Origin: a virus
Lineage: Duplodnaviria; Heunggongvirae; Uroviricota; Caudoviricetes
DNA: 64,000 nucleotides
IMG/VR virus record: IMGVR_UViG_3300021255_002251
Strand: one strand, 5' to 3'
The notes beneath the pieces were generated by a model. That model was not told the DNA's origin. It worked only from the letters and a program-made list of their open reading frames with translations, and did not search any database. Position numbers and translations under genes: made by a program. Positions 5,305 to 32,797 of this stretch are shown one piece after another. Each line of letters begins with the position of its first letter. Position 1 is the first letter of the stretch.

Positions 5305-5338
5305 GTGCGGCCTCCTTGTTTTTGTTTGAGAAACCAGG

Positions 5339-7296: not shown

Positions 7297-7303
7297 AGTT
7301 TGA

Positions 7304-7963
7304 TTACTTTACTATCCCCTGTTCAACGTGAGCTAGTCGAGAAGCATTTGCGGAATTATACTTATCTATAGCAGTCGTTATGCAGAAAGAAATCAATGTC
7401 ACCAAAGCACCAATAGCAATGCTTCTCCATAAGAATCTCGACCTGCGAACCTTCTGCGCGGAATCATAGCAGTCTTCGAGCGTTTTTCCAGTCTCCATAA
7501 TGGTGTCCATCGCCTTCTTCAATGTTGAAAGCCCCTTTGCGCATTCGGCCTTTTCTATTGATAGACTCTTTGTCAAGGCATCTACTACATCTTCAGAATA
7601 GTAGCATAGCCCATCTATGTTGATAGACCGTGGCTTATGATAGCATACGGACTTTAGGAAATTAGTTGCAGTCCGTTCCTTCATATCCTCTAGCCGTCCC
7701 TCGAAGTCTTTGTCTGGAGGAGGAACATCATCCTTCACGATGCGAATCTTCACTGTATTCTCATCTTCCTTCTGCTTGCGGGTTCTCTTTGGCTTCTTGT
7801 CGTGAGTGCAAGTCTTGTCTGGGTTCGGAATAAAATGCCCCTTCTCATCACGAAGTCTACCTGTAGCATCTGTGCAGGTCTTACGATCTTCAGAAGACAC
7901 TTCATTTACTTTTACATCTTCCGAAGCAGTCGGTTCTTGTTTTGTCTCAATTATCTCGTCCAT
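7304..7963 (-). CDS. hypothetical protein with C-terminal TM helix
   Basis: C-terminal WRSIAIGALVTLISFCITTAI. Confidence 0.4.
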   Translation of the reverse strand: MDEIIETKQEPTASEDVKVNEVSSEDRKTCTDATGRLRDEKGHFIPNPDKTCTHDKKPKRTRKQKEDENTVKIRIVKDDVPPPDKDFEGRLEDMKERTATNFLKSVCYHKPRSINIDGLCYYSEDVVDALTKSLSIEKAECAKGLSTLKKAMDTIMETGKTLEDCYDSAQKVRRSRFLWRSIAIGALVTLISFCITTAIDKYNSANASRLAHVEQGIVK

Positions 7964-12600: not shown

Positions 12601-13739
12601 GCAACGGTAGGCTTAAGCTCTCCCAACTCCTCCAACGGCCCCAATTTGGCCGTTACAGACTCCAAACAGTTATATTCATCTGACAGAGTCAGTTTTACCA
12701 AAACTCCTCCTGCAGAAATACCCCTATATAGATAGATTTCGCCATCGTAATACCGAAGAAAAGCATCGCCGCCACCAGTAAAGGTACGGCTATCTTTTGT
12801 CCATGTCTGACTATCCGCAGAATATAAGAACGTTCCGTCTTCTGGGCTATATAATATGGCATATCCATTGACTGTTATAATTGGCGTACAAGAAAAAGTA
12901 TATTGAATATTAGACCGCGTAGTACCGTTGAGATATTGCGATTGCCCGTATTTCAACCCTGGAGATGTAGTGTTGGAACTATAGTTAACATAATACCCTT
13001 TATTATATCCTACATGCTGTGTATTAGAAACCATATAGTTGCCGCTATAGGACTGTCCGCTAGATGAAACTGCAACAGCACCATTGGCTAGCGCAAAACA
13101 ATTGTTGTTTGCCACTTCTAACCTATAATAGTCATATCCATCGCCCGATGCATGAGTCCATGTAGCCAAATCAGTTGAGTAATAGATATAGTATTGGTAG
13201 ATGATGATAAACTTGCTATTGAAGAAAATGAGGTCTTTTATCTTCTGGTCTGTAATCTGGCTTGTCTGCGTCCATGTAATTCCGTCTGACGATGAATATA
13301 GGTGTCCCGTCTCATCCGCAGGAAGCGCGACATATAGGTTGTTCCCGTAGACAATCTTTGAGAAGCGTCCTGTGGTCTGATTCGTCTGGCTCCATGTCTC
13401 ACCGCCATCCGTAGAACGATATATGCCAGAATCCGCCCTGTCATAACATAGGAAAGAAACTCCATTGGCAATGTCAAAGTAATAAACCGACTCGTTGAAT
13501 TGAGATAGAGTAGTTGGAGCGCTAAAGATAGTACGAACAATTAGCCTTCCGTTCGCATCTACTCCATTCAGAGTCAAATCCTCTACCACCTGCCCTACCG
13601 CACCTGGGATAGAAGCGATAGACTCCGGCCACTGGCTTAAGTCGTTTGTTGGCGAGACGGTTGGGTTCTTCGCTTCTATCGCAGTCTTGATGTTCGCCTT
13701 GTTGGTAATCAACTGCTGGATTTCACTAGCGATGCTCAT
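9639..13739 (-). CDS. tail fibre / receptor-binding protein: BNR (Asp-box) repeats, tandem 51-aa modules, Gly linker, C-terminal BspA-type leucine-rich repeats
   Basis: Multiple S-x-D-G-x-T-W Asp-boxes (STDGGETWSQ, YSTDGINWTQS, YSADGQTWYQV and others). A 51-aa module ..SLTPGIVPSGNINITTTAQTDVSNYATAQVVDADLVAENIKSGVEILGV.. is repeated. GSGGGGGS linker. C-terminal Cys/Tyr-rich LRRs (IPSSITVLSSYVFDNCYSLHIVSLPATMYELGTYAFRNC...). Its ATG overlaps the upstream gene's stop by 4 nt. Confidence 0.8.
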   Translation of the reverse strand: MSIASEIQQLITNKANIKTAIEAKNPTVSPTNDLSQWPESIASIPGAVGQVVEDLTLNGVDANGRLIVRTIFSAPTTLSQFNESVYYFDIANGVSFLCYDRADSGIYRSTDGGETWSQTNQTTGRFSKIVYGNNLYVALPADETGHLYSSSDGITWTQTSQITDQKIKDLIFFNSKFIIIYQYYIYYSTDLATWTHASGDGYDYYRLEVANNNCFALANGAVAVSSSGQSYSGNYMVSNTQHVGYNKGYYVNYSSNTTSPGLKYGQSQYLNGTTRSNIQYTFSCTPIITVNGYAILYSPEDGTFLYSADSQTWTKDSRTFTGGGDAFLRYYDGEIYLYRGISAGGVLVKLTLSDEYNCLESVTAKLGPLEELGELKPTVARQTYSYDSNKYIGYDSFELAPINSRTLTITPSTVSQSIGTRWWVLGSNNNTGIWQSYNITGSSPTITQTGKNNGSFLWITFARGYFLAGGQFYGTWYSADGQTWYQVSGGTANAYFYCVAYGQNRIVAGTSIGIRYSSTVTSWTLSNKQDSSWRAITYGDGIFVAGSSSSSVGLWYSTDGINWTQSNKKNDTWYSLKYGLGLFVAGSDSTGLWYSADGINWTQSNVTSGGFGALDFGSSRFIAGSNANSGLWYSTDGMTWTQSDKTDGYFSSITNNRAIPRAIKYVAASNSGLWISSNGQTWTQIASGQGVNWGAAYYPEEFIYASTVTVKPVTAAIDADITAENIKSGVEILGVTGSLTPGIVPSGNINITTTAQTDVSNYATAQVVDADLVAENIKSGVEILGVSGSLTPGIVPSGNINITTTAQTDVSNYATAQVVDANLVATNIKKDVPILGVTGTYEGSGGGGGSANAVVFYDYDGTVLHSYSASEANALTALPALPSHSGSGLTCQGWNFSLAQMKSTLQAMGTCQVGAIYTTSDGKTRAILTVRDPKFSTVKLTLTQSVVNSVSINWGDGSGATTWSGTSQTTLTHTYSPSSYPATYTIAITVNSGTLTLNRMNLADVTEESNNATTQLFAKTSMLKEVHLGSNIKIGDSAFLACQFLEHITIPSTITSVGQKAFNECSRLQSIIIPSSITVLSSYVFDNCYSLHIVSLPATMYELGTYAFRNCRSLATITLPYTISFIAGYIFYNCSALSSIVIPPNVKTIGTYAFYYCYGLVECRMSSVLTQIASYGFAYCYGLRSLVLPSTLSSLGAYAFQNCYALPINLQSLTQVSKLNNYTFFNCYAMKTCSIPSTVTSIGTYVFSGCRFETVTIPESITSISSNLFQACSALQSITFPSGITSIAAGAFNNCHGVRTFDFRKSSSVPTLGNVNAFVYTDSTKEIIVPDALYNTWKAASNWNSTTNNIVNCIVKASESSLGPLT
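11278..11583. repeat. near-identical 153-bp tandem duplication inside the tail-fibre gene (2 full copies plus partials)
   Basis: gcatccaccacctgtgcggtggcatagttcgacacatccgtctgtgccgtagtcgtgatgtttatgttcccagaaggaactatcccaggcgtaagcgaaccag recurs at 11278 and 11431. Confidence 0.8.
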
Positions 13740-19897: not shown

Positions 19898-20080
19898 CTA
19901 CTCCGTTGGTCTAAATTCCCAGTATGTCGCATGTGAACCGCACTTAGTGCATGGGAAGAATCCATGTGTTTCATCGGACTTTATCTTCAAGTCCTTTGTT
20001 GTCACAAAGTAAACCTCTCCACATGTATTGCATTTGATTCTTACATGCCCATAAGGTATGTCTGTCTCTGACTTGACCAT
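19898..20080 (-). CDS. zinc-ribbon protein (CxxC...CxxC)
   Basis: KCNTCGEV....CTKCGSH. Confidence 0.4.
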   Translation of the reverse strand: MVKSETDIPYGHVRIKCNTCGEVYFVTTKDLKIKSDETHGFFPCTKCGSHATYWEFRPTE

Positions 20081-20089
20081 ACATCCTCC

Positions 20090-20875
20090 TCATCGGAAGA
20101 TTTGCTTGCCGGCGAAACCATTTCCCAGCATAGTGCTCTGTGGGTTCTCATATGCCCGTAGGGTCTTGTCGCTCTTCAATTCGTTCCACAGCGCTTCATA
20201 CGACTTGCGCGAATCGTAGTGTCGAAGAAGAGCATTTGTAAACTGCCCTCCTGTTGAAGCTCCATACGAATAGGTATCGTCAGGGCATCCGCTCCAGCAC
20301 AGCATCGAGAACTTCTGCTGCTCATTCAACCTATGATCCCACGATAGAGGTGGCCGAACCTTAAACCCAGGAGCGCGATACATCGTCTGCGAATGGCAAC
20401 AATCAAAGTATAGGAACACCCTCCCCTTGCTCTTGCTTATGATGCTCCATATCTCATTGTCTCGCATGTAAGTATCGTAGAGACATAGGAACTCATCCTT
20501 CCCGTCCACCTCTTCATTTCCAGTATTGTAAAACGGCTCGCTCCCTCCGTGTCCGGAATAGCAGAATATCACAAGCCCATCCGTTGCGCTTGCAATGGCC
20601 TTGTTCAATGCAGCCGTCACATTCGCTTTCGTGGCATTGGAATCTCTAAAGAGAACAATGTTCGGAGTATATGCCGATAGAAGCTTAAACATCCTATTCG
20701 CATCGTACCCCGCCCCCGGACAATCGCCAGCGAACCTCGAATTCTCCATACCAACAACCACCACATATGTGTTGGTTGATTTCGCTTCTGGCTGTATAGT
20801 TCCATCGGACTTGCATCCGCCGAATCCTAGACACATTCCAAACGCAACTAGAAATGCCATTACATGCTTCTTCAT
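20090..20875 (-). CDS. lipoprotein with caspase-like (peptidase C14) domain
   Basis: Lipobox MKKHVMAFLVAFGMCLGFGGC. Catalytic dyad context YSGHGG (His) and FDCCHSQ (Cys), as in caspase / metacaspase / CHAT folds. Confidence 0.55.
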   Translation of the reverse strand: MKKHVMAFLVAFGMCLGFGGCKSDGTIQPEAKSTNTYVVVVGMENSRFAGDCPGAGYDANRMFKLLSAYTPNIVLFRDSNATKANVTAALNKAIASATDGLVIFCYSGHGGSEPFYNTGNEEVDGKDEFLCLYDTYMRDNEIWSIISKSKGRVFLYFDCCHSQTMYRAPGFKVRPPLSWDHRLNEQQKFSMLCWSGCPDDTYSYGASTGGQFTNALLRHYDSRKSYEALWNELKSDKTLRAYENPQSTMLGNGFAGKQIFR

Positions 20876-20897
20876 CTTTCTGCTCTCCTTGCCTTCG

Positions 20898-21338
20898 TTA
20901 TTCCTTTGGCTCTGCTATCTGGTTTCCCTTCAAGTAAATGTAGATGTCTAAGTCCGTCCCGCCTCTCTCGTTATCCCTCGTGTCGACCTCTACACCATAC
21001 CCATTAGAGGAATTGTTTTTGGCTCCAATCTTTTCCAAGAAGTCCTCAAAGTAAGTCTGAAGGTCTTCCGCCGAAACATCTTCCTGCATTCCTGGTATCG
21101 CCATGTCGTAGCGAATGTATGTCTCATCCCCCATCTTCCCCTCATCTGGACTTCTATAGAACTTCTCTTCGAGAAGGTCTTCCTTTATGTCCAGCGGAGG
21201 AGCATAATCATCCAAGTAAGATACGAATGCCCTCTGTATGCTATCGGGATTCCATAGTTCGACTACTTCAGCAAGTTCGTCGAATGCCACAACCCCCGAT
21301 TGAGCATACAGATATGAGTAGAAATTCGTCTCTCCCAT
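20898..21338 (-). CDS. hypothetical acidic protein
   Basis: 146-aa ORF, Asp/Glu-rich. Confidence 0.4.
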   Translation of the reverse strand: MGETNFYSYLYAQSGVVAFDELAEVVELWNPDSIQRAFVSYLDDYAPPLDIKEDLLEEKFYRSPDEGKMGDETYIRYDMAIPGMQEDVSAEDLQTYFEDFLEKIGAKNNSSNGYGVEVDTRDNERGGTDLDIYIYLKGNQIAEPKE

Positions 21339-21417
21339 TATGTTTCTCTCCTGCTATACTTCATCGGCATTTTTCAAACAATGCCAATTTGTTAATAGCA
21401 GGTAAAATAAGGGGAGA

Positions 21418-22317
21418 CTAGAAAAGGAAGCCTTGGCTATATGTCTGTGCTTTCTCTTTTTCGGAGATATAATTCAGATAGAGGCTTTCAAACACCTCCT
21501 CCGTCCTGCCCTTTCCTAAGTATCTCTCGAAAGACGAATTCCCCGCATTGAGATATTCGTGGCGCTTATAAAGGCTTGTAGGAAGGTCGTATGTGCAATC
21601 CGTTTCACCCCGCTTGCCATCAAATGATAGAATCCATTTGCACTTGCGAGATGTTAGCCAATCGACAAAAGCATCAATATCTATACCTCCATAGTACATC
21701 TGCCTTTTGTGTACAGAAGCATACGGAGGGTCTAGGTAGAGGAAATCTTGGCATCTTGGTTCTAATGTTTCATATGATGCGCTCCGAAACTCTACAGACT
21801 TCGCCTTGAGAACTAAACTCCAGTCTCGACATATCTCTTTCAGTCGGACAGGGTGTATTCCGGGGCGTGAGAAATGACATGAATTATTGAACTCCCCCTT
21901 GTCGTTGTACCTCGGCATCCCATTTGTTGTAGTCCGCATTATGAAAAGGAAATCAATCGGGCTATGCTCTCTATTGTACCTGTCACGAATCGTATAGAAC
22001 ACTTCCTTTCTTCGCTCATAGTCCTCCTCACATAGCCCATGACGGTTGAATGCTTCCCACAATTCTCCATATCCATTGCATAGTTCGTCTGGATAGTCCC
22101 TTATCATGTTCCACAACCCGATAAGGTCTCTATTAACGTCAGATGCGACATATCTAGCGACCTTAACGGTAGGTGTATTAAGAAGACGATATAGTACGGA
22201 GCAGCCGCCACAGAACGGCTCATAATAGGTGGCAATCTCCCGTGGCATTCTGGCTACAATCTCCGCCGCTTGGCTTCGCTTGCTCCCGCTCCATTTGACT
22301 ATTGGCTCTAGTTGCAT
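21418..22317 (-). CDS. dam: DNA adenine methyltransferase, Dam / D12 class
   Basis: N-terminal KWSGSKRS (equivalent of Dam KWAGGK) and catalytic LYLDPPY. Its ATG shares the A at 22317 with the upstream gene's TAA stop. Confidence 0.85.
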   Translation of the reverse strand: MQLEPIVKWSGSKRSQAAEIVARMPREIATYYEPFCGGCSVLYRLLNTPTVKVARYVASDVNRDLIGLWNMIRDYPDELCNGYGELWEAFNRHGLCEEDYERRKEVFYTIRDRYNREHSPIDFLFIMRTTTNGMPRYNDKGEFNNSCHFSRPGIHPVRLKEICRDWSLVLKAKSVEFRSASYETLEPRCQDFLYLDPPYASVHKRQMYYGGIDIDAFVDWLTSRKCKWILSFDGKRGETDCTYDLPTSLYKRHEYLNAGNSSFERYLGKGRTEEVFESLYLNYISEKEKAQTYSQGFLF

Positions 22318-23138
22318 TAGAAAGCAAACTCCCCTTGGACAAGCCCCCTAATATCTATTGGCTTGTCATCCTTCGGCACGAATTCTCCCTTTAGTTCCGA
22401 ACTCTTCTCCGCCATCCCTTCCGCCATCAACCTTATCGGCATCCCATGCGCAAAGTAGCACGGAGTATACCACGGCCCCTCATACACTTCTCTCGAGAGA
22501 GAATCTTGGTGTGTGACTACAGCAGCATATCCTAGAAGAGAAAACTGGACATATGAAATGTAGCTCGCCGTAGGGTCTAAGTCTTCCCCATACAGAATCA
22601 AGTCGCATTGCCGACCGCCACTATCTATGAAAGCCTCCGCCGCTTCGATGAGCAATGCGCCGGCTCCGCAAGAGCAGTCGTTCATCCTTATTATCTTTCC
22701 AACCTTCGGGGCTTCACTAGCCATGGACATTCTCGCCATCATCCTAGCAATGCAATCGGGGGTTAGATACTGTCCAAAATGTTTGTTCGTTGCACTCAAT
22801 GCTTCATACACATGTCCTAGGAAATCGCTTCTCCTCAATTCTAGGGCCTGTACCACATAGGATAGCAGCACGGCAATCTTTCCCATTCCCTCATTGCCGT
22901 ATTTAGACACGAACGACATATACTGCTTTTCGATTTCTCCCTTTTCTTTTTCGTCCAGTGTCACAGCCCCGCTAATGGAAAGAGAGAATATCCTGCAGGC
23001 GTCGCAGAAAATAGTCCGCTGGTCTATGGACTGCGAGACGGAAGACAGAAGTTTTAGGAATGCCTTAAAGTATCCGTCCCAAGTTGTAGGCTCATCTACC
23101 TTGCGGACCGTCACCCCATTCTGCTGACTCTTTCTCAA
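22317..23138 (-). CDS. HsdM / N6_Mtase-family homolog lacking the catalytic NPPF/Y motif
   Basis: GQYLTPDCIARMMARM (motif X, GQ[FY]xTP) and DCSCGAGALL (motif I) are present. No NPPF/NPPY/DPPY follows. The ORF ends at a stop/start overlap with dam. Confidence 0.5.
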   Translation of the reverse strand: MRKSQQNGVTVRKVDEPTTWDGYFKAFLKLLSSVSQSIDQRTIFCDACRIFSLSISGAVTLDEKEKGEIEKQYMSFVSKYGNEGMGKIAVLLSYVVQALELRRSDFLGHVYEALSATNKHFGQYLTPDCIARMMARMSMASEAPKVGKIIRMNDCSCGAGALLIEAAEAFIDSGGRQCDLILYGEDLDPTASYISYVQFSLLGYAAVVTHQDSLSREVYEGPWYTPCYFAHGMPIRLMAEGMAEKSSELKGEFVPKDDKPIDIRGLVQGEFAF

Positions 23139-23542
23139 AACAATGTCTCCTCTTTGGGATTGACGTCGATCTCCTCTATCGTCTGCCCTATCTTGTCACC
23201 AAGCCATCTAGAAACAATATGACGATGACAGAATTTGTCAGGGGACTCATAACACATAAGCACCACTTTGTCTGTAGAACTCCTCTCTGCATACCTCCCC
23301 AATTTGAGCATGATTTCAGGTGCAGAAGCCATTGAAAGAATCTCCTTGTTGTACTTCTCTTCGTACACACCTGGATTGTTCTTCGCTCCAATGATTTCTC
23401 CTGTTGGCGCGAGGTCGGAAAGATACCATACAAGAAGGTCTTTGGAAAGAAACCATGGCCTAGTTCTCGCAATGCTTACAAGAGCATATCCCTTATCAGA
23501 ATATGCTTTCGCTTTTGCGAAATATCCAGTCCCGATTTTCAT
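23135..23542 (-). CDS. DUF488 (YeaO-like) family protein
   Basis: Collinear similarity to E. coli YeaO: ..KGYALVSIARTRPWF..LVWYLSDLAPTGEI...VVLMCYESPDKFCHRHIVSRWL.. Confidence 0.55.
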   Translation of the reverse strand: MKIGTGYFAKAKAYSDKGYALVSIARTRPWFLSKDLLVWYLSDLAPTGEIIGAKNNPGVYEEKYNKEILSMASAPEIMLKLGRYAERSSTDKVVLMCYESPDKFCHRHIVSRWLGDKIGQTIEEIDVNPKEETLF

Positions 23543-24330
23543 TCCTCACCCCCTTTAAGAAAAACTAGCCGTGCCTGCAGCCAAACTGGGACCTCCCTTC
23601 CCATAGCCACTATCTTCTCCGTATACCCAACATAATCAAAAGGCAACTGTCTCCACGTCACCCTTGGTATGGAATCGTCTATGATTGCATAAGTGCTATA
23701 CCTGCACAGTCTCGGATAACCAACGCTACCTACATTGAATATTGCCTCGCTCCATCCGTTTAGAGGTTGTGCAAGTCTTTTCCTAATACTTTTAGGTAAT
23801 GTCCCGTGGATAAGATTGCGGTCATCAGACGTGTTCCTTGCATACAACTCCGCTCCGTGAGTATGCCCTATGAAGAGAGCATCTATCCCGTTCTTGCGAA
23901 TCAAGTCCAGCTCCACTATTGCAGAGTAAATGGAGCCAATGTACCCGAACTGCTCCGGTATGGCATAGGTTCCGTGGCTAAATGCAACCTTTGTATCTCC
24001 AAACTGCTTCTCAATCTTGTACGGAAGGTTAGCTAGCCATTTCTTGTTCTCTTCCGTTACAAGTGGGCGATTAGATACAATGCCCTGTGCGGCATAGTGG
24101 TTGAACCAGTCAAGCGACAACTCACCTACAAGAGCAGCATCGTGGTTTCCCTTGATGCACTCTATGTCGTTCCGCTTGCAGATTTCGATGCACTCGTTCG
24201 GGTCGTATCCGTACCCAACGATGTCACCGCAGCAGATGATGTTCTTGCACCCTAGCCGCCTAGCGGAGTTGATTGCTCTCCGAAAGGCGGCAGGGTTTGC
24301 ATGAATGTCGCTAAAAACGGCTGTCTTCAC
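23539..24330 (-). CDS. calcineurin-like metallophosphoesterase (Ser/Thr phosphatase-like)
   Basis: Motifs FSDIHAN, GDIVGYG, GNHD, GHTH. Confidence 0.8.
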   Translation of the reverse strand: MKTAVFSDIHANPAAFRRAINSARRLGCKNIICCGDIVGYGYDPNECIEICKRNDIECIKGNHDAALVGELSLDWFNHYAAQGIVSNRPLVTEENKKWLANLPYKIEKQFGDTKVAFSHGTYAIPEQFGYIGSIYSAIVELDLIRKNGIDALFIGHTHGAELYARNTSDDRNLIHGTLPKSIRKRLAQPLNGWSEAIFNVGSVGYPRLCRYSTYAIIDDSIPRVTWRQLPFDYVGYTEKIVAMGREVPVWLQARLVFLKGGEE

Positions 24331-24641
24331 TTTGCTGGTTCTCCGTCCTCTAGTTCCTCATGCTGCCGCCACATATATGCCTCTTCAAGGAGCGACTTCA
24401 CCTCATCGTCAACGATAGACTCATCAACACCACGACACTTTGCCTCGAACTTGATGTAGTGTTCCGCTTTCTTTAAATCCTTCTCTTCGGATTCTCCGTC
24501 CTTGCATCCTGCTCGCCAAAGGTACTTCAAAGCAGAACCTTTGTTAAAGTTAAGCCCCTTCTCATATATGAAGTCCTCGAGGTACTTCCCGCAAGGAAGC
24601 AAATAATACGTTGTATTGTTTATTTGGGCTGCCGATGCCAT
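24327..24641 (-). CDS. DUF3310-like phage protein
   Basis: KYLWRAGCKDGE...DLKKAEHYI resembles the DUF3310 consensus. Confidence 0.45.
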   Translation of the reverse strand: MASAAQINNTTYYLLPCGKYLEDFIYEKGLNFNKGSALKYLWRAGCKDGESEEKDLKKAEHYIKFEAKCRGVDESIVDDEVKSLLEEAYMWRQHEELEDGEPAK

Positions 24642-24825
24642 TTTACTTTTCTCCTTGTTTGATTGCAGAAATCACATCCCTTATGCACCTATGCACAACA
24701 TCCTTTGCCCACTGACAGTTGAAGATATAGCACAACAGTACAAAAGACACAACCGCTGTCAAGCATCCAAAGCAACTGCATCCGCAGTTTATGGTAGAAG
24801 GCTTTCTCATCTCTTCTTCCATCTG

Positions 24826-26136
24826 TCAAGCTCCAACTCTTTCTGTTACCAAGTTCCCGTTATGGCAGAGCAACTTGCACTTGCTCATGGCTTTCACAAT
24901 TGTCTTCCCCTCATCGCTACGGCTAAGACACACTCTGTTATCTGACCCTTTTACTGACGATACTATATATATAACTCCGTTGAACTTGACAGTATCCCAA
25001 AGAGAGAATCCACGAATCCTTCCGCTCATCTTTTGAGGTCTCCTATATCCGCACTTTAGTTCTTTAGCGGTCATCTTACTTTTGTCCTTGATTGACTTTG
25101 GAGACAAAATCGTGTTGTCATGCAGATTCCTCCTATGCCTTCTTCTCTGATACAGACGATAGACATTATATGAATTGAGAAGTGCATTAAAATTCCCTGC
25201 TATGCAGAAAGAATCGTTTCTGTGGCTTTTCTCGACATTGTGTTCCCTCCGTGCCATCGCAGTCTCATACCCATAGGTGAACTCTACTGGAGTCTTCCAA
25301 GAATTATGCACAAGTTTATCAATCAGATATTTTCGCATGGAATTCATATGTGCCTCATTTTTGTGTATAGGCGGTCTCTTAAACTTCAACACCTTCTTCT
25401 TCTGGTGATGGGATTCGTGGCATTCGTGGCACAAAGTCACCACATTGTCTGGAGAATTGCTACCGCCATCCGCCCTACGGCGGATATGATGCACCTCTAA
25501 CCTTACGGACTTGTCCTTATATGGACTTGCACCGCACACTCGGCATTTGTTCCCGTCCCGCCACTTGGCATAGGATTTCAAATTCTCCCATCCTTCCAAT
25601 GCGCCTTGCTGATACTCTTCTCCTTTGATTGATGGATTCTGTATCTTTTGAGTATCAAACTTTCCAATCTCCACACGTAATCTGCTTACTGGCAGAATCT
25701 TTCTTACGAACTCTATTGCTCGTATGTGAGAATCAGCCTTATGCTTCACAGACGGCGGGAGAGAAGCATTTCTTTCTTCGTTCGCCCTGTTCGCCCACCT
25801 CGCAGGCCTATACCAGTTGTGCTTTCTTCCTCGTCTCCCCCTCCGCATTTCCCTACGGGCAGTCAATAGATTAGACACATCATCCCGTATCTCAACTTGC
25901 GCAGAGTATAGTTCCTTCTTTTCTGTTGATGCAGTCATCCCGATGTGCTTGCTTCCAACATCGACGCCAAGAGTAACTTCTTGACGATGATGGAAACTAT
26001 CGCAAAGAAGTCGAATGGTAAAAGGCTCTCGCCGTACTACCTTCGCCCTCTTATGCTTTAGAGAATATGCAACCCACCCGAACCGTTTGGTCGGCATTAG
26101 AGGTTTGCCCTCTTTATCCTGTACGTATACTAGCAT
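24826..26136 (-). CDS. iscB: IscB-like RNA-guided nuclease (PLMP-RuvC-HNH; OMEGA / Cas9-ancestor family), 436 aa
   Basis: N-terminal VYVQDKEGKPLMPTKRFGWVAYSLK (PLMP domain). RuvC-I TLGVDVGSKHIGMTAS. Arginine-rich bridge helix ARREMRRGRRGRKHNWYR. RuvC-II-like RLRVEIGKFD. HNH CRVCGAS...LEVHHIRRRADGGSNSPDNVVTLCHECHESHH. RuvC-III KSHRNDSFCIAGN. A C-terminal beta-rich domain follows. Confidence 0.8.
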   Translation of the reverse strand: MLVYVQDKEGKPLMPTKRFGWVAYSLKHKRAKVVRREPFTIRLLCDSFHHRQEVTLGVDVGSKHIGMTASTEKKELYSAQVEIRDDVSNLLTARREMRRGRRGRKHNWYRPARWANRANEERNASLPPSVKHKADSHIRAIEFVRKILPVSRLRVEIGKFDTQKIQNPSIKGEEYQQGALEGWENLKSYAKWRDGNKCRVCGASPYKDKSVRLEVHHIRRRADGGSNSPDNVVTLCHECHESHHQKKKVLKFKRPPIHKNEAHMNSMRKYLIDKLVHNSWKTPVEFTYGYETAMARREHNVEKSHRNDSFCIAGNFNALLNSYNVYRLYQRRRHRRNLHDNTILSPKSIKDKSKMTAKELKCGYRRPQKMSGRIRGFSLWDTVKFNGVIYIVSSVKGSDNRVCLSRSDEGKTIVKAMSKCKLLCHNGNLVTERVGA

Positions 26137-26460
26137 TCTTTTTTCTGTGTCTTACTTTTTTTGTTAACCGATTTCTCGGTAAGTCACCAGTCAGATTACT
26201 CCTTCTGGTGTTTGGTGCCCATCGGAGGGTTGCAGAGAGTTTCCTTTGTTCGATGCACACACTGTTCCTCTACCACAGAACTGTTTAATGTACATCCGCA
26301 GTGCGGCAAACTTGGACAACTATTCGCCGGTGCCTATGCATTTCCCTGTAACTTCTACTAGGTTTTCTGTTTCTTTCGTTTCCTTTCTAGTCTCCTAGTT
26401 GAACTATCCTTGCGGATTCCCGAAAAAATTAGTTGAAATAAAGCCTCTTGCAGGTTCTAG
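26137..26460 (-). ncRNA. putative omegaRNA / tracrRNA-like scaffold between the CRISPR array and iscB
   Basis: 324-nt region with no credible ORF, located where IscB omegaRNAs sit (5' of the ORF). It contains an imperfect anti-repeat at about 26397-26430: the minus-strand RNA AAUUUUUUCGGGAAUCCGCAAGGAUAGUUCAAC is complementary to the first ~20 nt of the minus-sense repeat GUUGGAACUACCUCCCGAAA. Confidence 0.45.
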
Positions 26461-26760
26461 GTTGTAAATGGTGTGATTTCGGGAGGTAGTTCCAACTTGG
26501 ATTCGGGCGGACGATTCCTCCTTCCGGTTGTAAATGGTGTGATTTCGGGAGGTAGTTCCAACTTGGCCCTCCTGAACGGCGGGCGGCTCCGCGTTGTAAA
26601 TGGTGTGATTTCGGGAGGTAGTTCCAACATAGACCGCCTTATAATATTCCTGCTCGTTGTTGTAAATGGTGTGATTTCGGGAGGTAGTTCCAACCGTGTG
26701 CCCTAGCGGACGGTTGTATTGGTCGTTGTAAATGGTGTGATTTCGGGAGACATCTCCAAC
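26461..26760 (-). CRISPR. mini CRISPR array: 5 x 36-bp repeats (GTTGTAAATGGTGTGATTTCGGGAGGTAGTTCCAAC on the plus strand), 4 x 30-bp spacers; the repeat at 26725-26760 is degenerate
   Basis: Repeats at 26461-26496, 26527-26562, 26593-26628, 26659-26694 are identical; 26725-26760 differs in its last 11 nt (gggagacatctccaac). Spacers at 26497-26526, 26563-26592, 26629-26658, 26695-26724. The strand is assigned to match iscB and the anti-repeat. Confidence 0.85.
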
Positions 26761-26766
26761 GAACAA

Positions 26767-27270
26767 CTATCTCCCTGTACTTCCAAAACCTCCTTCCCCA
26801 CGCTCTGTTTGGGATACTGCTTCTATCTCCACGGGAACGCATAGTGTCACAGGAGCAAGAACCAACTGTGCTATGCGGTCTCCCTTGTGGATTGTCTTAT
26901 GAAACTCTTCATCATTAGACTTCGGCAAATACTCAAAAATTCTAGTTCTCCCATCAAGATGCGAGTTATACACCACTGTCTGCGGAGACCACATCAGAAT
27001 TATACCAATTTCCCCTGTATATCCGCTATCAACTGTCCCTGGGGCATTGAATACCGTGATTCCTTCCTTCAAGGCAAGTCCGCTCCGTGGTCTTACCTGA
27101 ATCTCATACCCAGTTGGAATTTCAGCAATCAAGCCAGTCTTTACAAGTGTCGGAGTGAAAGGATTAAGTTTCACATCCTCCACCGCACAAACATCCATTC
27201 CAGAATCCCCAATATGGGCATATAATGGGAGTTTAGCATCAGGGTGTACCTTCTTGAATCCTAGTTTCAT
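26767..27270 (-). CDS. dut: dUTP diphosphatase
   Basis: GDSGMDVCAV and GTVDSGYTGEIGIIL dUTPase motifs. SD AAGGAG 8 nt upstream. Confidence 0.85.
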   Translation of the reverse strand: MKLGFKKVHPDAKLPLYAHIGDSGMDVCAVEDVKLNPFTPTLVKTGLIAEIPTGYEIQVRPRSGLALKEGITVFNAPGTVDSGYTGEIGIILMWSPQTVVYNSHLDGRTRIFEYLPKSNDEEFHKTIHKGDRIAQLVLAPVTLCVPVEIEAVSQTERGEGGFGSTGR

Positions 27271-27276
27271 TTTATT

Positions 27277-27477
27277 TCACTCCTTCTCCAGATATTCTCT
27301 CAATTCATCTGCGGTATCCTTTGCAGAGCCGGTAGTCTTTCCAGTCTCCCAGAAATCCTCAAACTTCCCCTTGGCCCCGTTCTTCTGCCAAATACCATAG
27401 ACTACCTTTACGAGTTCACCCTTCGTGTCTCGCTCGATATTACCCCATTTCCATCCGCCTTCAACTTTATGTGGCAT
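27277..27477 (-). CDS. small hypothetical protein
   Basis: 66-aa ORF. Confidence 0.3.
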   Translation of the reverse strand: MPHKVEGGWKWGNIERDTKGELVKVVYGIWQKNGAKGKFEDFWETGKTTGSAKDTADELREYLEKE

Positions 27478-27501
27478 TGTTAGTTTCCTTTCTTTGTGTG
27501 T

Positions 27502-27999
27502 TTAACCTAAAATGTACTTCTCATACTTGCTTCTCTCATAAATGCCGTCTCCCTTTATCGGCAACCAGCACCACTCATCTAGGTCCATCTTAATGGCCAT
27601 GTTCACTCCATCATCGTACACCCATCTAGGATTCTCTAGATTGAATGCCAAGAAAGCCTCATGGCGATTCTCGAACCTTTCGAAGTTACGCATGACCTTT
27701 CCGCATGAATCTTTTTCTTTTATAAGTTTCTCCCCGTCATCCCAATTGATGTAGCTCACATAGTCGCTCGATATGCGAGCAACCATGACCTTGTCAGCAA
27801 AAACATCTATTTCTGCACGTATCCTGTCACTTAACGTGGCACATGTGTAGTCTTGATTGTCTGGTAGTAATTTCATCACAAATACATAAGGAGTATCTGA
27901 ATCCTCCTCTACAACTTTCCCAAGCTCTTGTAGGGTCTGCCTAACCCTAACTCGGCTATTTGGTTTTTTTGTAATCAGTATCACATTGAATGCTTTCAT
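27502..27999 (-). CDS. hypothetical protein
   Basis: 165-aa ORF. Confidence 0.4.
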   Translation of the reverse strand: MKAFNVILITKKPNSRVRVRQTLQELGKVVEEDSDTPYVFVMKLLPDNQDYTCATLSDRIRAEIDVFADKVMVARISSDYVSYINWDDGEKLIKEKDSCGKVMRNFERFENRHEAFLAFNLENPRWVYDDGVNMAIKMDLDEWCWLPIKGDGIYERSKYEKYILG

Positions 28000-28002
28000 T
28001 AC

Positions 28003-28359
28003 TTACTTCTCCTCCAACTGGAAAAAACAACCTCTTTCGTTTATGCCAATTCTAGCCTGCTTTTCTTTTGGCTTAAACATGAATCTCATCCCAGTCCGAC
28101 AGTCGTATTCCGTAGCCTCGAGCCACCATTCTCCCCCGCTTAGCAGCCACATAGGATAGTGTGGCCCAGACGCCCAAACATCATTGTCCCATTCTGTTTC
28201 ATCTGCATATTTCCAAAAAGATGGCACATCTATGGAGAGCGCAGTATCAGGATCATTCCCAATGTCATCATCTCCCCATAGTACACAAACTATTTCTTCT
28301 CTAGAATGTCCATTGTTTTTCAACAAGTTGTCAATTTCACGTCCAAGATTTACTAGCAT
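28003..28359 (-). CDS. hypothetical protein
   Basis: 118-aa ORF. Confidence 0.4.
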   Translation of the reverse strand: MLVNLGREIDNLLKNNGHSREEIVCVLWGDDDIGNDPDTALSIDVPSFWKYADETEWDNDVWASGPHYPMWLLSGGEWWLEATEYDCRTGMRFMFKPKEKQARIGINERGCFFQLEEK

Positions 28360-28377
28360 TTGTCATTTCCTCCTTTT

Positions 28378-29160
28378 CTAAATTGTTGCGGGTGCATATA
28401 GCAAAGCCATTGCATCAGTCTTTATCCAGTCGGCTGATGGGCACCCTACCCCAAAATACTTTTCCATCGCCTTTGGTTCACGATTGAACGGAGGCGTGAC
28501 AATATGGAATCCATGCGGAGTCTTAAGAAAAGTCACATCCTCTGACACATACTTCGCGCTGACCTTCGGCATGAATTCCTTTTCTTCATCTGTTCTATTT
28601 CCAAACTTCAACACTAGAGCACGTCGAATCTTGTAGGAAATCCAAGAAGCATACTCCCTTACGACAAAGTTATCTGATGTGGGATTGAAATATTGTTCTC
28701 TCCAAGCGATAGATTTCTTGAATGTTGAATCATCATCTTCATCAATATCTATAACCCACCGCTTATGCCATTTTTCTTCAGTATCATGCATCCCAGCCAC
28801 ACAGGTGCGAATCAGGTGGTCAAAATGGACATTCATAGATCCTTTTTGTAACGTATCTGAAACCTTGCCGTGCAAATTCCAAAGCACCAGTCTGCAAGAC
28901 CTTCTTTGCGGGAGAATATATGCCCTTGCATTATTCTGTTCGCAAAGCGCCATGATTGCCTTTTTTTTCTTATCAAAATATTCCTTGTCATAAACAAAAT
29001 AGTGCTTGATAAGGCGATTGTCCTCATCCACACCTTCAATCATCTTGCCTTTCGTGTCCTTTCTCCTCTTAAGGACAAGAACCATATAGAATTCTCCGTC
29101 TCCATCAAACCGAAGAATGTTGTCTTTTACTTCATTGAAATTGTCTATCGGGTAAACCAT
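28378..29160 (-). CDS. hypothetical protein (260 aa)
   Basis: ORF; a single H-x-T-x-like element HIVT but no second one, so no family assigned. Confidence 0.4.
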   Translation of the reverse strand: MVYPIDNFNEVKDNILRFDGDGEFYMVLVLKRRKDTKGKMIEGVDEDNRLIKHYFVYDKEYFDKKKKAIMALCEQNNARAYILPQRRSCRLVLWNLHGKVSDTLQKGSMNVHFDHLIRTCVAGMHDTEEKWHKRWVIDIDEDDDSTFKKSIAWREQYFNPTSDNFVVREYASWISYKIRRALVLKFGNRTDEEKEFMPKVSAKYVSEDVTFLKTPHGFHIVTPPFNREPKAMEKYFGVGCPSADWIKTDAMALLYAPATI

Positions 29161-29477
29161 TACACGACACTCCCATCTGGAACGACTTCCTTAACAATCA
29201 TATCCGCCTCTATCTTTGAAACAATTGTCCTTACTATCGTTACAATCTCTTCACGGACGATGTTCCCTCGCCTAGCAAGGCTATCAATATACCAGTTACA
29301 GGCTTTCATAAACTGCTCCTGCTTAGCAGGGTCTATCTCCAACCTCGCCTTGTATCTGCACTTGACGGCAGCGAAGATGCATCCTCCTAGACCAAAACCA
29401 GCATCGAAGATGTAGTCTATTACCTGCCGTCCGTTCTTCAGAAGAAACTTCTTGTTCGTATTGTCATTCTCGCCCAT
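29160..29477 (-). CDS. hypothetical protein
   Basis: 105-aa ORF. Confidence 0.35.
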   Translation of the reverse strand: MGENDNTNKKFLLKNGRQVIDYIFDAGFGLGGCIFAAVKCRYKARLEIDPAKQEQFMKACNWYIDSLARRGNIVREEIVTIVRTIVSKIEADMIVKEVVPDGSVV

Positions 29478-29481
29478 AAGC

Positions 29482-30045
29482 CTATTTTCCTTTCTCCACC
29501 AGTTCTGCTTGCATCCTCTTGCCGAAATCCTCTATGAACTCCGCAAAAGACATATGAAGTCTCTTCTCTTTGATCTCCGCACTGTCTGGATTCTCTTCCT
29601 TCGCCAGTTCCTCTTCTGGTGAAACCTCTCTGGCATTTCTGCAGGCTGCATTCCCTCTATATCTTGCCTTGAACTGGTCTGGAAGTTTCTCTAATAGCCG
29701 CTGCTCCTTCTCCGAATCTGTCAACCTAGAGAACTCCTCCATCTGAAGCCAATGTAGATACAAGGTAAGCGTTATCGGTGATATAACGCAAGTTTGCCTC
29801 TTTATCTGTTCCAATTCCTCTTCCGAGAAACACCCAGAATCTCTCAATGGCGCAATCTGCTCTTCAGCGAAATTGATTATCCAAGTCTGAAGTTTAAGAA
29901 GCGCATCGTGGTATAGTTCATCCACATTGTCGGTATGGACAAACAAGGCTCCTAGAACATCCGTCTTGTCGATATTGACAAGAGGAAGGTCTATAGCCGT
30001 ATCCTCTACCAACGGCAAGTCCTTCTTGTCCGCATCCGCACTCAT
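29482..30045 (-). CDS. hypothetical acidic protein
   Basis: 187-aa ORF. Confidence 0.4.
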   Translation of the reverse strand: MSADADKKDLPLVEDTAIDLPLVNIDKTDVLGALFVHTDNVDELYHDALLKLQTWIINFAEEQIAPLRDSGCFSEEELEQIKRQTCVISPITLTLYLHWLQMEEFSRLTDSEKEQRLLEKLPDQFKARYRGNAACRNAREVSPEEELAKEENPDSAEIKEKRLHMSFAEFIEDFGKRMQAELVEKGK

Positions 30046-30046
30046 G

Positions 30047-30232
30047 TTAATCCATAACCTGTGCAGCCAAGAACGTGACGAACGATATTATCGCACATGC
30101 TACCGTCAAGACCATAAGATTGTGGTAGTAAGTGCTAACATTAGATGATGCTACCGCTCCGCAAAGAAGAATCGGCGACAGCGGCACCTCTAGTGCCGTA
30201 ATCTTCGAGATTGACAATAATAACTTTCTCAT
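30047..30232 (-). CDS. small membrane protein (internal start of the listed 120-aa ORF)
   Basis: MRKLLLSISKITALEVPLSPILLCGAVASSNVSTYYHNLMVLTVACAIISFVTFLAAQV with a GGAGGA SD 6 nt upstream. The upstream part of the listed ORF overlaps promoter 30284-30323. Confidence 0.4.
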   Translation of the reverse strand: MRKLLLSISKITALEVPLSPILLCGAVASSNVSTYYHNLMVLTVACAIISFVTFLAAQVMD

Positions 30233-30283
30233 GGTTTCCTCCGCTTGTTGTCTTTGTTGTCTTGTTTTGTCCTTGCGGAGTGT

Positions 30284-30323
30284 ATTATACCACACTCTTG
30301 ACTCGGCTTTCAAGGGGGTGTAG
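30284..30323 (-). promoter_or_regulatory. sigma70-type promoter: GGGGGTGTAG box, TTGAAA (30308-30313), 18 nt, TGTGGTATAAT (30284-30289)
   Basis: Minus strand reads CTACACCCCCTTGAAAGCCGAGTCAAGAGTGTGGTATAAT. Confidence 0.6.
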
Positions 30324-30332
30324 TTTTTTTTC

Positions 30333-30884
30333 TCACTCTTTGGTGAGGAAGTTGAAGAGTTCCCAACAGGCCTTTGCATCGTCAAGGGCATCATGTGAAT
30401 TCTTCGCATCCAACTGAAACACCCTAATGCAGTTGCTAAGATGATTGCCGGGGAGAATCGACTTAGGCAATTGAAGAGATTTCACGAATTCCTTTGTGCA
30501 ACATCCCATCGCCCTTTCCGGCAAATCGTCTGCAATGCCGTACTTCCTCATCATGTTCACAATCATCCGATAGTCGAAAGACAGATTGTGAGCAACAAGC
30601 AATGCCATACCCTCTTCGGATATTGTCTTCTCTATGAGTGCGAGGAAGTCCGACAGCACATCAACTGGATCAAGACCAGACTTCCGTAAAAGTTCATCAG
30701 TTATGCCATTTACTTTCTGTGCCTCAGTCCCATCAATCGGCACTTGATTTTTTAGGTAAACTGCCTTAGAGAAGAGTTCTTTTCTCTTCCTCATTGCAAC
30801 AACAGCCAACTGCACCACGTCGTCGTTATCGGTTAGTCCAGTAGTCTCTGTGTCGAACACAATGACAGTACCATTGTCAGCCAT
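30333..30884 (-). CDS. DEDDh 3'-5' exonuclease (DnaQ/epsilon-like)
   Basis: Exo I VIVFDTETTG, Exo II LLVAHNLSFD, Exo III HDALDDA. The start was chosen at the internal Met (MADNG..), just ahead of motif I. Confidence 0.75.
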   Translation of the reverse strand: MADNGTVIVFDTETTGLTDNDDVVQLAVVAMRKRKELFSKAVYLKNQVPIDGTEAQKVNGITDELLRKSGLDPVDVLSDFLALIEKTISEEGMALLVAHNLSFDYRMIVNMMRKYGIADDLPERAMGCCTKEFVKSLQLPKSILPGNHLSNCIRVFQLDAKNSHDALDDAKACWELFNFLTKE

Positions 30885-30922
30885 AACCGAATAAAGCGGC
30901 ACTCTTGCTAAATCGAACAGGT

Positions 30923-31108
30923 TCAATGCAATAGTCTCCAGATGATTCTTACAATCCCTTTTGTGATGAAAATAATGCCAATGGCTATCCAAATAACCGA
31001 CCAATATACATTGGGCGCATTAGGGTATTTGTTAGGCTTTAGTCTCCGAAACCGATTCATCGCATCGGTTTCTGACTTTGCCAACTTCTTGTACTTTGGG
31101 TTGTTCAT
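30923..31108 (-). CDS. small membrane protein
   Basis: WSVIWIAIGIIFITKGIVRIIW. Confidence 0.3.
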   Translation of the reverse strand: MNNPKYKKLAKSETDAMNRFRRLKPNKYPNAPNVYWSVIWIAIGIIFITKGIVRIIWRLLH

Positions 31109-31168
31109 TGTGAGAGAAAGCCCCTATCGGTCGCTCTCCTCATTCTCGACCGATAGGGGCTGGGGCGG

Positions 31169-32797
31169 TTAAGCCTTCTTCTTGGAATCGCCGCCGTTGC
31201 TCCCAAGCAACTTGGTTGCGAGAACTCCTCCGATTGCGGATTTCACATCAAAGCCAAGAGACTTGGAAAGTCCATCGAACAACTGCGTGGTGTGGTCGAT
31301 GACCCCTGCGGCAATCTTCCCTGACTGATCGCCATACATCGTGATGTTTCCGACCTTCGTGTAAGCGGAAGCCACTCCAGTTGCGATTGCGGGGAGAACA
31401 TTGACGAACTCCTTTACTACCTGCAACTGCAAGTCCATCTTTGCCGCTTCTCCGTACTTCGCCATGGCATCGGCTTTCTTTTCCAGGCCCTCTGCCTCTG
31501 CGATTGCCTTTGCGCGGATAGCCTCTGCCTCCGCATCGCCCTTCGCCTTGATGACATAAGCCTCATTCTCACCCTGCACCTTGTTGGCATCTGCGATTGC
31601 CTTGATTGCGGCGGCTTCGCGCTCTGCTGCAATCTGCTTCGCCTCTGCTTCCTTCGCCTGCTGGAAAAGTGCGGCATCCGCAGCGGCCTTTGTAGCATCA
31701 GCCTCACGCTCAGCCTCTATCTGGACGGCTTCAGCCTTGCGGGTTCGCTCAGCAAGTTCCGCCTCCGCATTCTTCTGTGTGGTGTAGAGACGAGCATCGG
31801 CCTCCTGCTGTGCGGCGAACTTCTCCGCTTCCGCCTTCTTGCGGATTTCGGCATCGAGTTCCTTTTCGGTGATTGCCACCTTCCTCTGAGAGAGTTCGGT
31901 CTTCTTCTCGAGTTCTATGATGCTCGCATCACCCTTCGTTGCTTCGAGAATCTTACGCTGCTCTTCCGCCTGGATCCCCTTTGCGGCTTCTGCTATCGCA
32001 ATCTGAATGTCGGCCTGCTTCTTAAGGTCGGCTTTCTTGATTTCGAGTTCGTTGTTGCGAATCGCAATCTCCGTCTCAGCCGCTACGCGGGCATCGTTGG
32101 CTTCCTTTGCAGCCTTTGCCTTGGCCTGTTCCACCTGAGCCTCCGCATTCGCACGAGCGATTGCCGCATCCTTGGAGATGGTTGCAATGTTGTCAATACC
32201 AAGGTTCTCGATCGCCTTGTCATCGTCCGTGAAGTTCTGGACATTGAACGAGACGATTTCCAAACCCATCCTCTCCAAGTCGGGTGCGGCATTCTTCTTT
32301 ACCGCCTCCGCAAACTGCTGGCGATTGAGAACCATCTCCTTGGTTGTCATTTCACCAACAATCTCGCGCATGTTGCCTTCGAGGACTTCTTTGGCATTTT
32401 CGCTGATGTATTCTGGTGAGGCATTGAGGAAGTTCATCGCCGCAAGTGCGAGCATCTGCTCTTCACGGCTCACCTTGATGTTCACGACTGCATCCACATT
32501 GACGTTGATGAAGTCCTTGTTGGGGACCTTCTGCTTCGTCTTCACGTCAACCTGAATGAGTTCGAGCGTCACCACGTCAAGGCGCTCGAAGAACGGAATC
32601 CTAAAGCCTGCCCTGCCGATAAGAGTCCGCTTTCGGAGACCGGATATGATATAGGCTTTGTCGGGCGGTGCCTTGCAATACCCGAGCGCGAACACTCCAA
32701 TGAAGAATAGAACACCAACGGCGATACCAACGATTCCCCAAGGGAAACCGCCTATTGACGATGCCGCAAAAGCGGCGGTGACTACCTGTGTGTGCAT
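31169..32797 (-). CDS. flotillin-like SPFH / Band-7 membrane protein
   Basis: N-terminal TM segment. SPFH core ISGLRKRTLIGRAGFRIPFFERLDVVTLELIQVDV. Long Ala/Glu/Lys-rich flotillin-type coiled-coil repeats follow. Confidence 0.8.
   Translation of the reverse strand: MHTQVVTAAFAASSIGGFPWGIVGIAVGVLFFIGVFALGYCKAPPDKAYIISGLRKRTLIGRAGFRIPFFERLDVVTLELIQVDVKTKQKVPNKDFINVNVDAVVNIKVSREEQMLALAAMNFLNASPEYISENAKEVLEGNMREIVGEMTTKEMVLNRQQFAEAVKKNAAPDLERMGLEIVSFNVQNFTDDDKAIENLGIDNIATISKDAAIARANAEAQVEQAKAKAAKEANDARVAAETEIAIRNNELEIKKADLKKQADIQIAIAEAAKGIQAEEQRKILEATKGDASIIELEKKTELSQRKVAITEKELDAEIRKKAEAEKFAAQQEADARLYTTQKNAEAELAERTRKAEAVQIEAEREADATKAAADAALFQQAKEAEAKQIAAEREAAAIKAIADANKVQGENEAYVIKAKGDAEAEAIRAKAIAEAEGLEKKADAMAKYGEAAKMDLQLQVVKEFVNVLPAIATGVASAYTKVGNITMYGDQSGKIAAGVIDHTTQLFDGLSKSLGFDVKSAIGGVLATKLLGSNGGDSKKKA

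Follow-up and report, generated by a model that had tools for sequence, protein, structure and literature searches.

A tailed-phage locus in which a CRISPR array adjoins a candidate RNA-guided IscB nuclease

Introduction

IscB nucleases associated with CRISPR arrays were reportedly described by Altae-Tran et al. in 2021 (Science 374:57), and are said to come generally without adaptation genes. Here, we analyse a 64,000-nucleotide (nt) stretch of viral DNA (IMG/VR record IMGVR_UViG_3300021255_002251; the full stretch is called the window throughout), in which an initial annotation had proposed a cassette of this kind, with array and scaffold between the dUTPase gene dut and iscB. We consider it likely that this cassette is a phage-encoded, CRISPR-array-associated IscB acting by an RNA-guided mechanism.

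DelIscB, a CRISPR-associated IscB of 457 amino acids (aa) with a 16-nt guide and the target-adjacent motif (TAM) NAC, cuts DNA and has been engineered for editing; its non-coding RNA carries repeats, spacers and an anti-repeat (PMC12660989). Compared by description only, the window locus resembles DelIscB in encoding an IscB-size protein (436 versus 457 aa) downstream of an RNA in which repeats, spacers and an anti-repeat are joined to an omegaRNA-like scaffold, and differs in lying inside a phage operon. Since it has the same defining anatomy as CRISPR-associated IscB, it belongs to an already known class. As is said of that class in general, the window showed no adaptation genes. Its lineage departs from the published CRISPR-associated IscBs, again by description, in that its nearest relatives are single-guide phage cassettes and its spacers turn over between near-identical loci. 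In the literature covered, the 2021 paper excepted, we found neither a phage carrier genome, nor nesting among homing-type phage cassettes, nor rapid spacer turnover described for CRISPR-associated IscB.

Stand-alone IscB-omegaRNA systems (OMEGA; OgeuIscB, PDB 7utn/7xht; HEARO, RF02033) and the window locus are alike in protein family, catalytic residues and scaffold core, and in the position of the guide immediately 5' of the scaffold. In the window, however, the scaffold's first stem-loop is divided between repeat and anti-repeat, four guides that bear no relation to the flanks take the place of a single flank-copied guide, and TnpA or a recognisable IS200/IS605 context is lacking. Type II Cas9s, especially the compact II-D Cas9d and II-C, have the same dual-RNA logic, in which a spacer-repeat CRISPR RNA (crRNA) sits on an anti-repeat at the 5' end of the scaffold, together with an HNH domain inserted in RuvC, 36-nt repeats and 30-nt spacers. 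In contrast to these, the window IscB has no recognition (REC) lobe, is a third to half the size and carries an N-terminal PLMP domain, its scaffold is of the large omegaRNA type, and cas1, cas2 and csn2 were not detected in the window.

Phage CRISPR systems and mini-arrays (Cas-phi/Cas12j, Cas-lambda, ICP1 type I-F) likewise combine a compact effector with a short array on a phage, without adaptation genes and with a presumed role in mobile-element conflict (PMC11656645). The effector in the window is different, being an IscB, which is not mentioned in a review of phage-encoded CRISPR systems (PMC11656645); with this locus, IscB would join the effectors that phages carry together with mini-arrays. 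Free-standing homing endonuclease genes (T4 Seg/Mob; PMC13565253) are resembled by two array-less relatives, L095 and L096 (L-numbers denote the relative loci fetched), which are inserted cleanly between conserved genes, with the uninterrupted allele as target and a diverged target copy beside the element. Recognition by L095 and L096 would differ from that of homing endonucleases in being RNA-guided, and the guides of the window cassette no longer match its insertion site.

Results

A CRISPR array adjoins iscB

The cassette is on the minus strand in all its parts, and so is every gene of the region (Table 1). The exact 36-mer GTTGGAACTACCTCCCGAAATCACACCATTTACAAC occurs four times in the array, against none expected from 100 shuffles, and a period of 66 nt with 36-nt repeats leaves spacers of 30 nt each. 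An array of identical direct repeats with unique spacers, in the 36/30 format that the initial annotation had recognised, therefore adjoins iscB on the same strand, with a fifth copy (repeat 1) that is degenerate in its 5' half. The first repeat is degenerate in all related arrays too, and there it abuts or overlaps the stop codon of the upstream gene. The distances initially given, six nt from the dUTPase stop and 324 nt between array and iscB, agree with the coordinates. The repeat termini GTTG...TACAAC (26461-26760) appear similar to those of type II-C CRISPR repeats, and could bear on recognition by host Cas1-Cas2. Repeat 1 also contains the palindrome GGAGATGTCTCC, of which the sibling L103 (6511-6546) has the exact reverse complement, GGAGACATCTCC; judging from the two copies, either the central two bases were changed or the 12-mer was inverted.

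Table 1 Features of the cassette in the window and motifs of its IscB protein
Feature	Position	Strand	Evidence or remark
dut (dUTPase gene), upstream boundary of cassette	26767-27270	minus	Pfam dUTPase 1.4e-22; PHROG dUTPase 3.3e-52
Gap, dut stop codon to repeat 1, 6 nt		minus	
CRISPR array, 5 repeats and 4 spacers	26461-26760	minus	
Repeat 1, degenerate in 5' half, GTTGGAGATGTCTCCCGAAATCACACCATTTACAAC	26725-26760	minus	helix-1 part changed, helix-2 part intact
Repeats 2-5, identical, 36 nt, GTTGGAACTACCTCCCGAAATCACACCATTTACAAC	26659-26694, 26593-26628, 26527-26562, 26461-26496	minus	
Spacer 1, 30 nt, GACCAATACAACCGTCCGCTAGGGCACACG	26695-26724	minus	
Spacer 2, 30 nt, AACGAGCAGGAATATTATAAGGCGGTCTAT	26629-26658	minus	
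Spacer 3, 30 nt, GCGGAGCCGCCCGCCGTTCAGGAGGGCCAA	26563-26592	minus	
Spacer 4, 30 nt, CGGAAGGAGGAATCGTCCGCCCGAATCCAA	26497-26526	minus	
Non-coding gap, last repeat to iscB ATG, 324 nt	26137-26460	minus	
Linker, last repeat to anti-repeat	26426-26460	minus	cofold
Anti-repeat, TTTCGGGAATCCGCAAGGATAGTTCAAC	26398-26425	minus	cofold and compensatory changes across loci
OmegaRNA (HEARO)-type scaffold without first stem-loop	26210-26404	minus	Rfam RF02033, 66.9 bits, E 1.7e-12
3' extension of non-coding RNA and iscB 5' untranslated region	26137-26209	minus	two short hairpins, no T-run terminator
iscB, 436 aa	24826-26136	minus	Pfam RRXRR and HNH
IscB PLMP motif, GKPLMPT	residues 10-16		
IscB RuvC-I	D59		
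IscB Arg-rich bridge helix	residues 94-104		
IscB RuvC-II	E156		
IscB HNH	C198/C201, H216-H217, N231, C236/C239, H240		
IscB RuvC-III	H305/D308		

The repeats might instead encode a repetitive protein, as a 120-aa open reading frame (ORF; 26404-26766) crosses the whole array of the window in one open sense frame. This frame is open because the 66-nt period is a multiple of three, and it is not conserved in sibling arrays: stops occur in every frame across those of the closest sibling, L103, and of L005, L092 and L097, while L004 lacks an open sense frame and has a single open antisense one. In addition, repeat units of 55 and 62 nt exist, and the spacer segments show no similarity among themselves. 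We rejected the coding reading, which has next to no probability. The initial annotation had seen no ORF logic behind it; the dismissal is borne out by the sibling stops, but an ORF does cross the array.

The adjoining gene encodes an IscB

By sequence, the 436-aa protein is an IscB with intact RuvC and HNH catalytic residues, as had been proposed. Pfam RRXRR, which represents the PLMP/RuvC-I/bridge-helix/RuvC-II region of IscB, matches residues 3-178 (1.9e-53), and Pfam HNH matches residues 198-245 (6e-10). When all PDB chains were searched with phmmer, the top five matches were IscB chains (including 11hr, 7xht and 7utn; E 7e-39 to 2e-37), with alignments spanning the PLMP/RuvC-I region through RuvC-III and residues 2-121 aligned with the N-termini of the IscB chains. 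IsrB and small Cas9s scored far below IscB, the best Cas9-named chain being YnpsCas9 (1.2e-14, in the HNH region only). A Foldseek search of the PDB with an AlphaFold model returned IscB for all top matches (8csz, E 1.3e-22), followed by IsrB and Cas9. Judged mainly by sequence, the RuvC domain is split by the Arg-rich bridge helix and an inserted HNH domain, in line with the initial annotation. The motifs named there (PLMP, RuvC-I, bridge helix, HNH and RuvC-III) are intact, and the catalytic residues of RuvC (D59, E156, H305 and D308) and HNH (H216/H217, N231 and H240) are invariant in an alignment of 34 homologues and align with those of OgeuIscB. Protein homologues at E <=1e-20 number 2646.

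The protein has no REC lobe and lies below the ~700-aa minimum of Cas9, and therefore does not classify as one. An IS200/IS605 context was not found, with no Y1 transposase among the Pfam families listed and with dut and a 59-aa membrane-type gene as neighbours; TnpA was not seen, and the spacers show no match to the flank that would mark a guide copied from flanking DNA. Many IscBs lack TnpA, so that the missing context does not exclude membership of the IscB family. Its 436 aa are fewer than those of DelIscB (457 aa) or OgeuIscB (496 aa), and with its intact RuvC and HNH sites the protein is predicted to be among the smallest array-guided nucleases. This makes it a candidate compact editor whose natural design would be either dual-RNA or single-guide.

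Repeats are predicted to pair with an anti-repeat fused to the scaffold RNA

An omega-like scaffold had been suspected in the gap between array and iscB, and a covariance-model search supports it with a match to Rfam HEARO (Table 1). In the alignment, 46 nt inside the first stem of the model are missing, the match starts in GTTCAAC, and the anti-repeat TTTCGGGAATCCGCAAGGATAGTTCAAC lies directly 5' of this start. Cofolding of a crRNA-like spacer-repeat with the 324-nt RNA paired repeat nucleotides 1-20 with the anti-repeat. Of the resulting two helices, one joins GUUG(G)AACUA to UAGUUCAAC and the other joins UCCCGAAA to UUUCGGGA; between them, a small hairpin with a GCAA tetraloop sits on the scaffold strand. 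In each of the five distinct loci, repeat nucleotides 1-20 cofolded onto an anti-repeat that directly precedes the scaffold on its 5' side.

Differences between the two clades of array-bearing loci (A and B, described below) fall on both sides of these pairs, supporting the anti-repeat that had been proposed. In helix 2, G17:C is replaced by A:U in clade B, and helix 1 shows the compensatory changes A6:U to C:G and C8:G to G:C between clades; L006 retains one pair as G:U. Cognate repeat/anti-repeat combinations cofolded at -15 to -22 kcal/mol, as against -10 to -16 kcal/mol for cross-clade combinations. Covariation was judged from cofolds of each locus, as helix 1 of the two clades, whose bulges differ, did not align in one register with MAFFT. 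The linker (26426-26460) is conserved at 29 of 30 positions in the siblings L003 and L103.

The repeat thus appears to supply in trans the 5' strand of a stem that an ordinary omegaRNA forms in cis, with the spacer in the guide position of the omegaRNA. The scaffold would then serve as the body of a trans-activating crRNA (tracrRNA). As repeat 5 and the anti-repeat would lie on one transcript, spacer 4 can act as a natural single guide, and the linker would then be the loop of the hairpin predicted by cofolding of repeat 5 and the anti-repeat. A sequence scan found no sigma-70-like promoter or intrinsic terminator between dut and iscB; the simplest assumption is read-through transcription from dut, which is probable.

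Array-bearing loci are a rare, derived form

We gathered the DNA that surrounds the closest IscB homologues and the homologues of dut, and used a degenerate repeat pattern to scan JGI metagenomes. This yielded eight independent arrays with the same architecture, that is, 36-nt repeats, mostly 29-30-nt spacers and a degenerate first repeat, which fall into two IscB clades, A (the window; L103/L104 with L003; L004; L005; L097) and B (L006; L092; L093/L094). The iscB gene is intact in all loci examined.

The six array-bearing loci scanned with Rfam (window, L003-L006) gave truncated HEARO matches of 65-81 bits. No IscB-type array was present in the fetched relatives at 37-66% identity (L001, L002, L007, L095, L096 and ~80 IMG/VR viral loci), and the array-less relatives that were scanned with Rfam have full-length HEARO RNAs (94-146 bits). 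The array-bearing loci lack stem-loop 1, which bears out the initial view of the locus as CRISPR-associated rather than as a stand-alone omegaRNA. As the array-less relatives have the full-length RNA, the array form is, on this comparison, a derived state within a phage-borne lineage of IscB. The form is rare as well: none of 2.9 million IMG/VR contigs has an array matching the degenerate repeat pattern, which in JGI metagenomes gave a single real array (L097) besides five chance matches in single copy. A megablast search of window positions 20000-32000 against GenBank phages gave no match.

Other arrays were seen near two further IscB genes. In L019, an IMG/VR viral contig, a full-length HEARO/IscB is preceded ~800 nt upstream by a five-copy array (2398-2700, period 63-65), on either side of which lies a RAGATH-30 RNA match that exceeds the gathering score (1022-1084 and 2717-2779). 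On the viral contig L064, two CRISPR-like arrays (1162-1433 and 7167-7507) with the palindromic repeat GTTGCACCCCGCATGGGGTGCATTAGATTGAAAT flank an IscB gene; they are unrelated to the IscB-type repeats.

Two array-less relatives bear signatures of homing

The sibling phage L095, 77-89% identical to the window over YqaJ, RecT and portal, carries a single-guide IscB cassette (4622-6176) as a clean insertion between window positions 58316 and 58320, which on the minus strand is the junction between the RecT stop and the ATG of a 236-aa gene. The 24 nt preceding the L095 omegaRNA (GGTGGAGAGGAGTAATCCTTGTCT) are identical to the uninterrupted site of the window, where the sequence continues with ATGGCGA. 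A guide aimed at the empty allele would be expected to show this geometry, which suggests RNA-guided homing between phages, a process that a 2026 review treats as a theoretical possibility only (PMC13565253). In L096, the IscB cassette follows a 32-codon 5' fragment (287-384) of the window's 66-aa gene (27277-27477, minus strand), and after the cassette comes a second copy of the gene (1919-2114), complete though diverged, with mismatches at the guide 3' end; the arrangement resembles the footprint of intronless homing.

The 5' stem segment of the L095 omegaRNA is duplicated (4621-4724), with two 37-nt copies, 86% identical, spaced 67 nt apart. This period is near the 66 nt of the arrays, and suggests a possible proto-array and a way in which an array could start. 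[quoted passage not shown] A bolder reading, which we think unlikely, is that, in this lineage, a homing omegaRNA element is giving birth to a CRISPR system, the array having arisen by tandem duplication of the guide and the 5' strand of the first omegaRNA stem, with fast gain and loss of spacers without Cas1-Cas2 of its own. Such gain and loss would need borrowed host adaptation enzymes or an undescribed route, at which the odd spacers of 19-26 nt may hint. If this reading is true, the step from OMEGA to type II CRISPR would be directly testable in phage.

Spacers turn over between near-identical loci

The eight arrays are short, with two to four spacers each, and hold 26 distinct spacers with a mean G+C of 50%. 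Spacer content varies between closely related genomes. The window and L103 are identical at 92.5% in dut, 97.2% in scaffold RNA (26137-26460) and 91.5% in iscB, as against 82-84% in the outer genes (66-aa, 59-aa and DUF3310), and none of the four window spacers is related to the three of L103 (30, 19 and 26 nt). L004 and L097, with 99.7% identity in scaffold RNA and 98.8% in the first 257 nt of iscB, differ in all four spacers. At the same time, identical arrays were recovered from different samples (L093 and L094; L103 and L104), which shows the arrays to be real and, over short times, stable. No adaptation genes were found among the called genes of the related loci. Complete spacer turnover at 97-99.7% scaffold identity without detected adaptation genes is a testable puzzle.

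Turnover of this kind, in a window without detected adaptation genes, could also indicate a counter-defence role, in which the array is a decoy for, or hijacks, a host type II system by soaking up Cas9, borrowing Cas1-Cas2 or mimicking host repeats; the apparent likeness of the repeat termini to type II-C repeats would fit. A phage strategy of Cas9/tracrRNA mimicry has been reported (PMC10910872). However, the anti-repeat is fused to the scaffold of IscB itself and co-varies with the phage's own repeats, IscB keeps all of its catalytic residues, and the one metagenome scan showed no host array with such repeats, its sole multi-copy match being a phage-type locus. On balance, a decoy or hijack role is faintly suggested and improbable.

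Inactivity would be another explanation of the short arrays, for which no targets were found: the array could be a duplicate of the 5' end of the omegaRNA that is in decay and currently functionless, and L095 shows that this end can duplicate. Against such a relic, four repeats are identical, the non-coding RNA is conserved above the protein gene (97.2% versus 91.5% between the window and L103), pairing is kept by compensatory changes in two diverged clades, iscB is intact in all loci examined, and identical arrays recur in different samples. We regard an inactive relic, for which the hints are equally faint, as very improbable.

Proposed mechanism and targets

In the RNA-guided reading that we prefer, read-through of the dut operon would transcribe the cassette, and the 5' part of each repeat would pair with the scaffold-fused anti-repeat, supplying the missing 5' stem strand. 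Each spacer-repeat unit would pair in this way, repeat 5 in cis as a natural single guide and the others in trans. By analogy with characterised IscBs, the guide would be the repeat-proximal 3' part of the spacer (~16-20 nt), and IscB would cut double-stranded DNA bearing the matching sequence next to a 3' TAM. The most likely ancestors of the cassette are single-guide IscB-omegaRNA cassettes that move from one sibling phage to another as RNA-guided homing elements. With its array, the phage could direct the nuclease at several sequences unrelated to the insertion site, most plausibly in competing phages or other mobile elements.

Several results weigh against this reading. Owing to the absence of stem-loop 1, the HEARO score (66.9 bits) falls short of the Rfam gathering score (83). 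The repeat/anti-repeat duplex has no energetic advantage over shuffled repeats set against the 324-nt RNA, so that the pairing argument rests on position and on the comparison between loci. The AlphaFold model of IscB has low to moderate confidence (predicted local distance difference test 61.7), and the RuvC/HNH assignment thus stands mainly on sequence. The odd lengths of a few spacers (19, 22 and 26 nt) are unusual for Cas1-Cas2 integration, and no cas1, cas2, cas4 or csn2 was found among the 72 window ORFs with PADLOC and Pfam (25 best families listed).

Spacer searches, which the initial annotation had suggested, gave no protospacer and count on the same side. The 26 spacers, compared by blastn-short with the window and 105 fetched loci, had self matches only, apart from one match of L092 spacer 3. 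The window array had only chance matches (E >=1) in GenBank phages and PLSDB plasmids, the 22 other spacers had no match in GenBank phages, and an exact IMG/VR scan for the 20 nt at the 3' end of five spacers, four from the window and one from L097, found none. The exceptional L092 spacer 3 (4644-4672) has 20 nt identical to the scaffold-RNA region of its own IscB locus (4780-4799) and of its siblings L093 and L094, with mismatches at the spacer 3' end; from this identity, it may be derived from, or aimed at, a rival IscB cassette.

With no protospacer for any spacer, the target class is a guess, and our assignment is tentative, at best an even call. The initial annotation had put forward competing phages or plasmids, or host defence loci, as possible targets. 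We favour competing mobile elements because other phage-borne arrays offer an analogy (PMC11656645). Alleles of sibling phages are the main alternative: the cassette would be a multi-guide homing element, an RNA-guided version of the free-standing homing endonucleases, whose spacers target allelic sites, so that siblings present in a co-infection either receive a copy of the cassette with its flanks or are excluded. This differs from the preferred reading in target class only. The homing signatures of the single-guide relatives speak for it, as do the 91-97% identity of cassette and dut between the window and L103 against 82-84% for their neighbours, as in a co-conversion tract, and the 20 nt that L092 spacer 3 has in common with the scaffold-RNA region. 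But, own loci aside, neither the 64-kb window nor any sibling fragment searched has a match to one of the 26 spacers, and in L105 the slot of the cassette holds an unrelated gene that no spacer matches. We therefore think this alternative rather unlikely, and keep competing mobile elements as the favoured targets.

The cassette occupies a variable slot in a tailed-phage genome

The window encodes portal, terminase, primase, NrdD, YqaJ/RecT, RusA, two Tad2-like proteins and 15 tRNA genes, which show it, in agreement with the initial annotation, to be a tailed phage; its portal is 35% identical to portals of PB1/E217-like myoviruses. The slot between dut and the 59-aa gene was searched for an empty site in siblings. 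In L105 (6525-7070), an unrelated Cys-rich 181-aa gene was found between dut and the 59-aa membrane-type gene, and not a clean empty site. Judging from these sequences, the window cassette occupies a variable slot, and the block of higher identity formed by dut, scaffold and iscB in the window and L103 fits a recently exchanged block.

Elsewhere in the window, the 15 tRNA genes are clustered at 50567-52627 on the minus strand. Among the 72 scanned ORFs are the two proteins with Tad2-like (Thoeris anti-defence) domains and one leucine-rich-repeat protein of the BspA type. Inside a 1366-aa ORF (9639-13739), positions 11278-11573 hold a tandem repeat with a 153-nt unit (1.9 copies, 93% match).

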